Assembly: GCF_003334765.1 (NCBI RefSeq)
Contig: NZ_QOWT01000001.1
Strand: one strand, 5' to 3'
Origin: Escherichia coli
Lineage (GTDB): Bacteria; Pseudomonadota; Gammaproteobacteria; Enterobacterales; Enterobacteriaceae
Length of the DNA stretch: 64,000 bases
The notes under the pieces were generated by a model. That model was given only the letters and a program-made list of their open reading frames with translations, made no database searches and was not told where the DNA came from. A program made the translations under genes and the position numbers. This document shows positions 618-1,439 of this stretch, in pieces (the stretch's first letter is position 1; each line of letters starts with the position of its first letter).

Positions 618-1439
618 ATGATGCACAGGTTGAATCTCAATGGCTATGAACCCGACCGACACCATGAAGCCGCGGTCGCATTTTGTATTCACGCCGGAAC
701 GGATGAGTTAACCAGTCCTGTACATCAGCACCGCAAAGGACAGCTGATACTGGCGCTACATGGTGCAATTACCTGTACGGTGGAAAATGCTTTGTGGATG
801 GTGCCGCCACAATATGCGGTTTGGATACCGGGCGGGGTGGAACATAGCAATCAAGTAACAGCTAATGCTGAACTCTGTTTTCTGTTTATCGAACCCAGCG
901 CAGTGACAATGCCGACAACATGTTGCACATTGAAAATATCGCCCTTATGCCGGGAATTAATTTTAACCCTGGCAAACAGGACGACGACTCAGCGTGCTGA
1001 GCCAATGACCCGCAGATTAATTCAGGTCCTGTTTGATGAACTCCCTCAGCAGCCACAACAACAGCTGCACCTGCCCGTTTCTTCTCATCCTAAAATCCGC
1101 ACGATGGTGGAGATGATGGCGAAAGGGCCTGTCGAGTGGGGGGCATTGGGGCAATGGGCTGGCTTTTTTGCGATGAGTGAACGCAATCTTGCCCGACTGA
1201 TAGTAAAAGAGACGGGGTTGAGTTTTCGCCAGTGGCGTCAGCAGTTACAGCTGATTATGGCGCTTCAGGGATTAGTGAAAGGCGATACTGTACAGAAAGT
1301 TGCTCATACGCTGGGGTATGATTCAACAACGGCCTTTATTACTATGTTTAAGAAAGGCCTGGGGCAAACGCCAGGCCGATATATTGCGAGATTAACTACT
1401 GTTTCCCCACAATCAGCGAAACCAGACCCGCGGCAATAA
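618..1439 (+). CDS. nimR: AraC-family transcriptional regulator
   Basis: ORF track 273 aa; C-terminal AraC HTH region ([14 protein letters not shown]...TAFITMFKK); recognised as YeaM/NimR. Confidence 0.88.

Follow-up and report, generated by a model that had tools for sequence, protein, structure and literature searches.

A probably passive tail-to-tail overlap of nimR and yeaL in Escherichia coli, with a likely yeaL terminator written in nimR codons

In the classical view, reportedly that of Fukuda et al. 2003 and of Johnson and Chisholm 2004, short overlaps between bacterial genes come from the loss or shift of a stop codon. In convergent overlaps of this kind, two genuine genes share their 3' ends only and the overlap extends as far as the next in-frame stop, and this is also the arrangement of nimR and yeaL in Escherichia coli. 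The pair resembles as well the convergent excludons, a concept of Lasa and Toledo-Arana, in which the transcripts of two neighbours overlap and a terminator lies inside the transcription unit of the partner. ExcludonFinder 2025 (PMC12288877, Table 1) places yeaL-nimR among the 165 convergent excludons found in at least 50% of 58 MG1655 transcriptomes, and yeaK-yoaI, yeaO-yoaF, cho-ves and nudG-ynjH are on the same list. The overlap described here is an ordinary tail-to-tail overlap, already annotated and catalogued, and the overlap of its transcripts is already published; given the reference annotation, the published excludon list and the two similar convergent overlaps of 35-44 nt elsewhere in the window (cho-ves and nudG-ynjH), it carries little weight as a discovery. 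The new detail is a hairpin followed by a U-tract in nimR codons 245-254, with a footprint at the synonymous sites of nimR, which would be worth a small follow-up.

The window analyzed is a stretch of 64,000 nucleotides of E. coli DNA (contig NZ_QOWT01000001.1), and the features of the junction are collected in Table 1. Ogasawara et al. 2015 are said to have identified NimR (YeaM) as the repressor of nimT (yeaN), a 2-nitroimidazole exporter, and for YeaL we know of no function. NimR matches the Pfam families HTH_18 (residues 180-257, model positions 1-79 of 80) and AraC_binding, and YeaL matches DUF441 over residues 7-145 (E=3e-44); NCBIfam has no specific model for either protein and gives only generic AraC matches, below the cut-offs. 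The annotated start of nimR, not its end, looks one codon too long. The two genes thus share their 3' coding ends and are both genuine protein-coding genes, that is, a convergent overlapping CDS pair. By direct reading, positions 1, 2, and 3 of the nimR codons lie opposite positions 1, 3, and 2 of the yeaL codons, with nimR codon 260 beginning at 1395.

Table 1. Coordinates of the features at the nimR-yeaL junction, numbered from the first letter of the window
Feature	Coordinates	Strand	Description
nimR (yeaM) CDS	618..1439	+	273 aa, AraC-family regulator; stop TAA at 1437-1439
yeaL CDS	1396..1842	-	148 aa, DUF441 inner-membrane protein; stop TAG (CTA on the + strand, 1396-1398)
Tail-to-tail coding overlap	1396..1439		44 nt; nimR codons 260-273 and stop against yeaL codons 135-148 and stop
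Site of the nimR stop	1435..1440		TAA (1437-1439) opposite yeaL Leu135-Ile136 (CTT ATT); next xTT-A pattern in frame
Stop-shift site	1408..1412		yeaL codon 145 GTG (Val, 1408-1410, -) against nimR codon 265 CAA (Gln265, 1410-1412, +)
Probable yeaL intrinsic terminator	1346..1377	-	Hairpin 1377..1356 and U-tract 1355..1346, within nimR codons K245-R254
NimR C-terminal tail, residues 260-273	1395..1436	+	Beyond the AraC fold; predicted disordered; length and sequence unconserved
nimR 3' untranslated read-through region	1440..1600	+	Antisense to yeaL, C-rich; candidate zone of Rho-dependent termination (inference)

This geometry is established well beyond the window. The RefSeq annotation of strain LD27-1 shows the same pair, and in that of MG1655, where yeaL occupies 1874352..1874798 (+) and nimR 1874755..1875576 (-), the overlap is again of 44 nt and the junction sequence is identical to that of the window. 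The annotations of O157:H7 and O26:H11 also have the 44-nt overlap, and a 106-nt junction probe has a match of at least 95% identity in 5409 of 5426 complete E. coli genomes. The gene identities, coordinates and 44-nt convergent overlap described in an earlier note on this DNA therefore agree with the list of open reading frames and with both RefSeq annotations (LD27-1 and MG1655).

To follow the position of the nimR stop across Enterobacteriaceae, one genome per species was taken and a peptide-pattern scan gave 80 loci with yeaL (81 including the window), in which the end of nimR was set by re-translation to the first in-frame stop and measured against the yeaL stop. Counting the window, nimR converges on yeaL in 59 of the 81 species, and in 56 of these 59 it either overlaps yeaL or adjoins it within 5 nt. 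The extremes are a nimR stop 181 nt short of the yeaL stop and one 45 nt inside yeaL. An overlap of 17 nt is the most frequent state (27 of the 59 species, in Klebsiella, Enterobacter, Raoultella, Kluyvera, Leclercia, Lelliottia, Pluralibacter, and others), followed by the 44-nt overlap of E. coli and most Citrobacter (14 species). Other overlaps are of 20 nt (three species), 21 nt (one), 45 nt (one), 6 nt (two), and 0 nt (one), whereas the remaining species have gaps of 1, 4, 5 (five Buttiauxella species), 122, 127, or 181 nt. Conservation of the overlap across the family, the check proposed in the earlier note, is then borne out for the close convergent packing, which is widespread among the 59 species, but not for the length of the overlap or even its sign, both of which vary. 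Because its length is not conserved, the coding overlap itself would not be the selected feature. Also, the nimR-nimT pair is absent beside an unchanged yeaL in several Escherichia species.

The difference between the two commonest states follows from a single residue of YeaL. A stop in the nimR frame needs the pattern xT(T/C)-Axx in two consecutive yeaL codons, and the 17-nt and 44-nt states track the presence of Ile or Val, respectively, at YeaL position 145. With Ile (ATx) at this position, for example as Phe-Ile or Ile-Ile at 144-145, nimR meets a TAA or TGA on its own strand and overlaps yeaL by 17 nt only. In E. coli and most Citrobacter, the GTG codon of Val145 makes nimR codon 265 CAA, so the frame reads on for nine codons to the Leu135-Ile136 site. 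Since Ile145 is the widespread state, the 44-nt overlap is most simply a derived extension of nine codons in which a stop was lost.

What happens within the overlap can be read from the 14 species that share the 44-nt state. Eleven columns vary there, 10 of them third positions of yeaL codons and the other a synonymous first position of a Leu codon, and the last 14 residues of YeaL are invariant in all 14 species. In the same species, the identity of NimR to the window falls from 89% at residues 236-259 to 58% at residues 260-273. As the variation is silent in yeaL, the NimR tail changes through substitutions at second codon positions. Judged from these alignments, selection in the overlap would act on yeaL only. 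On the YeaL side, codons 135-148 form the end of the conserved DUF441 domain. On the NimR side, in an AlphaFold2 model built with 26 orthologues (mean pLDDT 84), the last helix spans residues 252-261 and the pLDDT of residues 262-273 is below 50, and the AraC fold ends at about residue 259-261, where the yeaL stop lies on the opposite strand.

An overlap of this length is expected without any special cause. In the antisense phase of nimR and yeaL, the stop frequency is 0.052 per codon in the long open reading frames of the window, with a median run-on of 12 codons, and the chance of a run-on of at least 14 codons is P ~0.47. Moreover, 4 of the 18 convergent CDS pairs in the 100 kb at 1812194-1912193 of MG1655 overlap, namely cho-ves (41 nt), nudG-ynjH (35 nt), yeaL-nimR (44 nt), and mntP-rlmA (4 nt). 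Both figures indicate that the nimR-yeaL overlap is neither improbable nor unusual. In the same 100 kb, yeaK and yoaI abut with zero gap, and three more convergent pairs lie 3-8 nt apart.

As there is no intergenic DNA between the two genes, any terminator must lie inside the partner gene. A consensus scan found only one terminator-like site near the 3' end of yeaL, on the yeaL strand. In RNA it reads GGCCUGG-N8-CCAGGCC followed by UUUCUUAAAC (1355..1346), which in DNA form is GGCCTGG-CGTTTGCC-CCAGGCC followed by TTTCTTAAAC. The stem has seven pairs, six of them G-C, closes a loop of 8 nt and starts 18 nt past the yeaL stop; a GC-rich stem with a U-rich tract just past the stop is what the sequence criteria for an intrinsic terminator describe. 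The U-tract corresponds to nimR codons K245-K246, and stem and loop to G247-L-G-Q-T-P-G-R254, in the conserved C-terminal motif of the AraC family. Folded alone, the 59-nt 3' region of yeaL forms this hairpin at -14.1 kcal/mol, with z=-1.5 and 14 of 200 shuffled sequences folding as well; single-sequence folding is thus weak support, and the argument for a terminator rests on comparative data.

Among 22 species of Escherichia, Citrobacter, and Salmonella, the stem is paired in 98% of the cells of the alignment whereas the loop is freely variable. As a background we took 90 fourfold-degenerate sites of nimR at which the amino acid is conserved, whose median entropy is 1.35 bit; at the third codon positions that fall in the stem (G247, L248, P252, and G253), the entropy is 0-0.27 bit. 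Entropies that low are found at 7 of the 90 sites, and four of the seven are the stem sites (hypergeometric P=1.4e-5, permutation p=1e-4). The one codon used for Pro252 is CCA, which is not a preferred one. The hairpin of these three genera folds at -13 to -20 kcal/mol (-13 to -14 kcal/mol in E. coli), compared with a mean of -6.3 kcal/mol for synonymous recodings of the same peptide. In C. braakii, a terminator-like site is found at the same place with a T6 tract, which is present in Salmonella too, whereas the tract of E. coli is interrupted. No covariation is seen in the stem among the 22 species, where no pair varies on both sides; nor could any arise, since the partner of every variable site is a first or second codon position that is fixed, and the evidence for the stem is then of conservation only. 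In genera outside Escherichia, Citrobacter, and Salmonella, the hairpin is no stronger than the synonymous null predicts and the structure is not maintained; in K. pneumoniae, for example, no terminator-like site follows yeaL. Based on these comparisons, the hairpin is most likely an intrinsic terminator of yeaL embedded in nimR in the Escherichia-Citrobacter-Salmonella clade. Since it is made of conserved AraC-motif codons, its maintenance is visible as a constraint on synonymous sites of nimR.

The end of the nimR transcript appears to be of another kind. On the + strand, the consensus scan gave no terminator-like site between 400 and 2700, and the DNA downstream of the nimR stop (1400-1600) has a GC skew of -0.22 to -0.27. 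The C-rich RNA that this predicts past the stop would suit Rho, and it is from such features that we infer how nimR transcription ends, as well as the termination of yeaL transcription at the hairpin. In one species with a spacer between nimR and yeaL, a terminator-like hairpin for nimR lies in that spacer. An Rfam scan of 500-2700 gave a sole match, a JUMPstart element at 1607-1636, which at 20.9 bits (E=0.19) stays below the gathering score of 35 and was treated as a chance match.

With these two ends, the yeaL transcript seems to finish about 46-50 nt inside nimR, and the overlap of the transcripts is probably asymmetric and longer than 44 nt; the stretch of complementarity between the two mRNAs should begin at about 1348, extend past 1439 and measure about 90 nt or more. 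In wild-type cells, the counts of Huang et al. 2020 (PMC7373196, Table S1c) are 4.5 RPM sense and 2.9 RPM antisense for yeaL, and 17.6 RPM sense and 0.84 RPM antisense for yeaM (nimR). This agrees with an asymmetric read-through, from nimR into yeaL more than the reverse. Both genes are weakly expressed in these gene-level tables.

Several other explanations of the junction can be weighed against this evidence. The earlier note would have given up the overlap if a sequencing frameshift or an alternative stop made one of the two frames really shorter. This reading is refuted by the unambiguous stop codons of both genes, by the identical arrangement in MG1655, O157:H7, O26:H11, and the 5409 genomes, whose number excludes a sequencing frameshift, and by a YeaL C-terminus that is conserved across genera to its last residues; an artefact of annotation or sequencing is then scarcely conceivable. 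It is also highly improbable that the NimR tail has a function of its own, such as that of a degron or an interaction motif, with the overlap kept by selection on both proteins. Such a role would fit the presence of the tail in nearly all E. coli genomes (5409 of 5426) and the 44-nt overlap common to E. coli and many Citrobacter species, but the overlap differs between close relatives (Escherichia 'E69' has 17 nt, and some Citrobacter have 20 nt or lack it), and an IS1 element interrupts it in one E. coli strain. The drop in identity at the tail (from 89% to 58%), its predicted disorder and the fact that every substitution is synonymous for yeaL point the same way. On the other hand, the conserved hairpin could serve the nimR mRNA, as a stabilizer near its 3' end or a translational pause, or have a function at the DNA level, instead of terminating yeaL. 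The stem is a perfect palindrome that forms on both strands, and synonymous constraint alone does not tell which strand is selected; moreover, neither gene has an RNA 3' end in the tables of Adams 2021, TERMITe 2025, or SMRT-Cappable-seq 2018, which are possibly incomplete for genes of such weak expression. Nonetheless, a U-tract follows the stem only on the yeaL strand (UUUCUU in E. coli, U6 in Citrobacter and Salmonella), whereas the nimR strand has GAUAUAUU there, the stem would be unwound by ribosomes because it lies inside a translated frame, and a distance of 18 nt from the yeaL stop is what terminators usually show. A role of the hairpin on the nimR side is therefore improbable.

A different question is whether the overlap exists for regulation, as a convergent excludon in which polymerase collision, RNase III, or both would make the expression of the two genes mutually exclusive. 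In such a scheme, yeaL would be silenced, for example, when nimR is derepressed. The earlier note held that the two mRNAs must overlap, which is logically sound if both are expressed in one cell and agrees with the excludon call of PMC12288877; its further step, to antisense interference or cleavage by RNase III, is unproven. The listing of yeaL-nimR in the MG1655 excludome would favor the regulatory reading, as would the convergence of the genes in 59 of 81 species with overlap or a spacing of at most 5 nt in 56 of the 59, an antisense signal at yeaL of about 0.3-0.65 of the sense signal (PMC7373196), and a terminator embedded in the partner gene, which guarantees that the transcripts overlap. 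However, the excludon label applies by definition to any expressed convergent pair with overlapping CDSs, and p19 data could not validate convergent excludons in general (PMC12288877). At this locus, p19-captured dsRNA counts are low to moderate, at gene level and not position-resolved, and neither mRNA rises at gene level in the two RNase III mutants, with yeaL at 4.5, 4.6, and 3.5 RPM and yeaM at 17.6, 11.4, and 6.9 RPM sense in wild type, rnc-14, and rnc-38, respectively (Huang et al. 2020, PMC7373196). Also, the overlap ranges between -181 and +45 nt, and several Escherichia species have lost nimR-nimT but keep yeaL intact, both of which speak against strong selection on the coding overlap. 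An overlap that exists for mutual interference is accordingly doubtful. Further removed from the data is a drug-responsive version, an excludon or noncontiguous operon in which the DNA coding for the helix-turn-helix of NimR would also form the yeaL terminator, under selection on synonymous sites, and a NimR-controlled read-through would run antisense across all of yeaL, possibly into yoaI, a small-protein gene co-oriented with that read-through. We consider it unlikely; if true, nimR-yeaL-yoaI would be interleaved with yeaK-yeaL on the other strand, and derepression of nimR would lower the expression of yeaL.

The explanation that we find likely as a whole is that of a passive overlap, produced by packing and a stop shift, with a yeaL terminator in nimR codons and read-through of nimR. 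The geometry, the logic of the stop shift, the unconserved tail and the constraint on synonymous sites are shown by the data. The two genes are packed end to end with zero spacer, and the nimR frame runs past the AraC domain, antisense to the last transmembrane helix of YeaL, until the first in-frame stop. An ancestral nimR stop at codon 265 would have been lost (TAA to CAA), coupled to the I145V change of YeaL, with the overlap growing from 17 to 44 nt, and the 14-residue disordered tail of NimR would follow the synonymous third-position changes of yeaL, which are second positions of nimR. The yeaL terminator would be built from nimR codons 245-254, with Lys-Lys giving the U-tract and Gly-Leu-Gly...Pro-Gly-Arg the GC stem, and would be held by selection on synonymous sites in the Escherichia-Citrobacter-Salmonella clade. 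Then, nimR, having no hairpin terminator of its own, would probably read into the C-rich antisense of yeaL and end by Rho or by polymerase collision.

The junction is useful mainly as a worked example. One substitution, non-synonymous in yeaL (I145V), removes a stop in nimR; the overlapped tail is a passive mirror of the synonymous changes of its partner; and the loss of the spacer forces a terminator into the CDS of the neighbor, with a measurable footprint at synonymous sites. This footprint is a caution for studies that take the synonymous sites in the 3' ends of genes as neutral.

Regarding known systems, the pair differs from the convergent excludons in that its overlap is in coding sequence and not in 3' UTRs, and in that the gene-level rnc data show no rise of mRNA. 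Intrinsic terminators placed in the CDS of a convergent neighbor are alike in their elements, here a 7-bp GC-rich stem, an 8-nt loop, and a U-rich tract, 18 nt past the stop, whereas the putative terminator of yeaL differs in being written wholly in conserved AraC-motif codons and in being found only in Escherichia, Citrobacter, and Salmonella. Bidirectional terminators (Ju et al. 2019; collision model, bioRxiv 10.1101/2022.10.23.513370) also have a hairpin where convergent units meet, and polymerase collisions could help to end the nimR transcripts. However, the hairpin of the present locus (1356-1377) precedes the nimR stop by 60 nt, and the + strand continues with GATATATT, without a U-tract; it is thus not a terminator of nimR and would act in one direction only, so a bidirectional terminator was rejected. 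With overprinted antisense genes such as laoB in EHEC (PMC5810103), the locus shares the translation of both DNA strands, but it involves 14 codons only, in an unconserved and disordered part of NimR, and no new protein, which rules out this class. Finally, no essential difference separates the pair from the convergent overlaps that come from stop loss, where the extension is likewise short and unconserved; for nimR and yeaL, the step can be read from 59 species and goes together with the replacement of an amino acid in the partner protein.

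In six fetched yeaL loci that lack nimR (those with an unrelated partner in the table), an unrelated convergent gene runs 17-21 nt into the 3' end of yeaL; in L043 and L077 the partner is confirmed by NCBIfam as an amino-acid ABC-transporter permease. Since an unrelated gene ends within yeaL where nimR is absent, the tail-to-tail yeaL overlap recurs with a non-homologous partner. Also, the cho-ves and nudG-ynjH overlaps lie in the same 64-kb window as the nimR-yeaL overlap and are similar to it in size, and yeaK and yoaI abut with a 0-nt gap. In 100 kb of MG1655 (1812194-1912193), 4 of the 18 convergent pairs overlap. 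Moreover, cho-ves, nudG-ynjH and yeaK-yoaI are each entered in the published excludon list (PMC12288877).

The locus L085 is a natural uncoupling of nimR and yeaL. There, an IS1 element is inserted within the 44-nt overlap, and the annotated nimR (840 nt) and yeaL (501 nt) both have IS1-derived C-termini. In the five loci from which nimR-nimT is missing, yeaO directly follows yeaL; one of them, L003, retains a nimR remnant in which the first ~42 codons are fused to the last ~25, the deletion junction being located in the loop of the hairpin, the probable yeaL intrinsic terminator. The nimR orthologue of Leclercia adecarboxylata NCTC13032 carries an in-frame stop and is covered by tblastn at residues 33-273 only; it may be a pseudogene in this strain. 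Regarding the start of the gene, the annotated E. coli NimR begins with MMHRL. The conserved Met corresponds to codon 2 because orthologues show LM.., IM.. or MM.. at this position, and the true start may be the second ATG.

Features with their coordinates (window numbering unless a locus is named)
Feature	Coordinates	Detail
cho-ves convergent CDS overlap	~51,800-51,840	41 nt; converted from MG1655 1824362-1824402
nudG-ynjH convergent CDS overlap	~34,300-34,335	35 nt; converted from MG1655 1841863-1841897
yeaK-yoaI junction	2116/2117
yoaI	2012-2116 (+)
Unrelated-partner overlap with yeaL	~3427-3447 in each locus	L031, L043, L045, L053, L069, L077; Phytobacter, soil MAG, Entomohabitans, Dryocola, Cedecea neteri
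IS1 insertion	L085 1391-2144; window ~1430	E. coli 23CRST051
nimR-nimT-less loci		L003, L005-L008; Escherichia sp. MOD1-EC7003, 'E. coli' SCPM-O-B-8794, Escherichia sp. E1V33, E. whittamii, E. albertii
nimR orthologue with in-frame stop	L065 ~3434-4225
Annotated NimR N-terminus	618-623
Possible nimR start (ATG)	621
Sigma-70-like match	2007-2034 (-)	yeaL strand
JUMPstart match	1607-1636 (+)	antisense within yeaL

The sole sigma-70-like promoter match within 400-2700 falls within the first part of the yoaI CDS. Were it active, yeaL and yoaI would overlap divergently in their 5' regions too. The JUMPstart Rfam match is sub-threshold (20.9 bits, E=0.19, gathering score 35) and is probably due to chance.

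Finally, the genes alternate in strand across window 618-4333, in the order nimR(+), yeaL(-), yoaI(+), yeaK(-) and dgcJ(-), yeaL being placed between the co-oriented nimR and yoaI, and yoaI between the co-oriented yeaK and yeaL. Published counts give a heavy antisense signal for yoaI (13.4 RPM antisense versus 2.4 RPM sense) and likewise for yeaL (PMC7373196). Gene order and antisense counts together hint at interleaved read-through units in this region, which would resemble noncontiguous operons.
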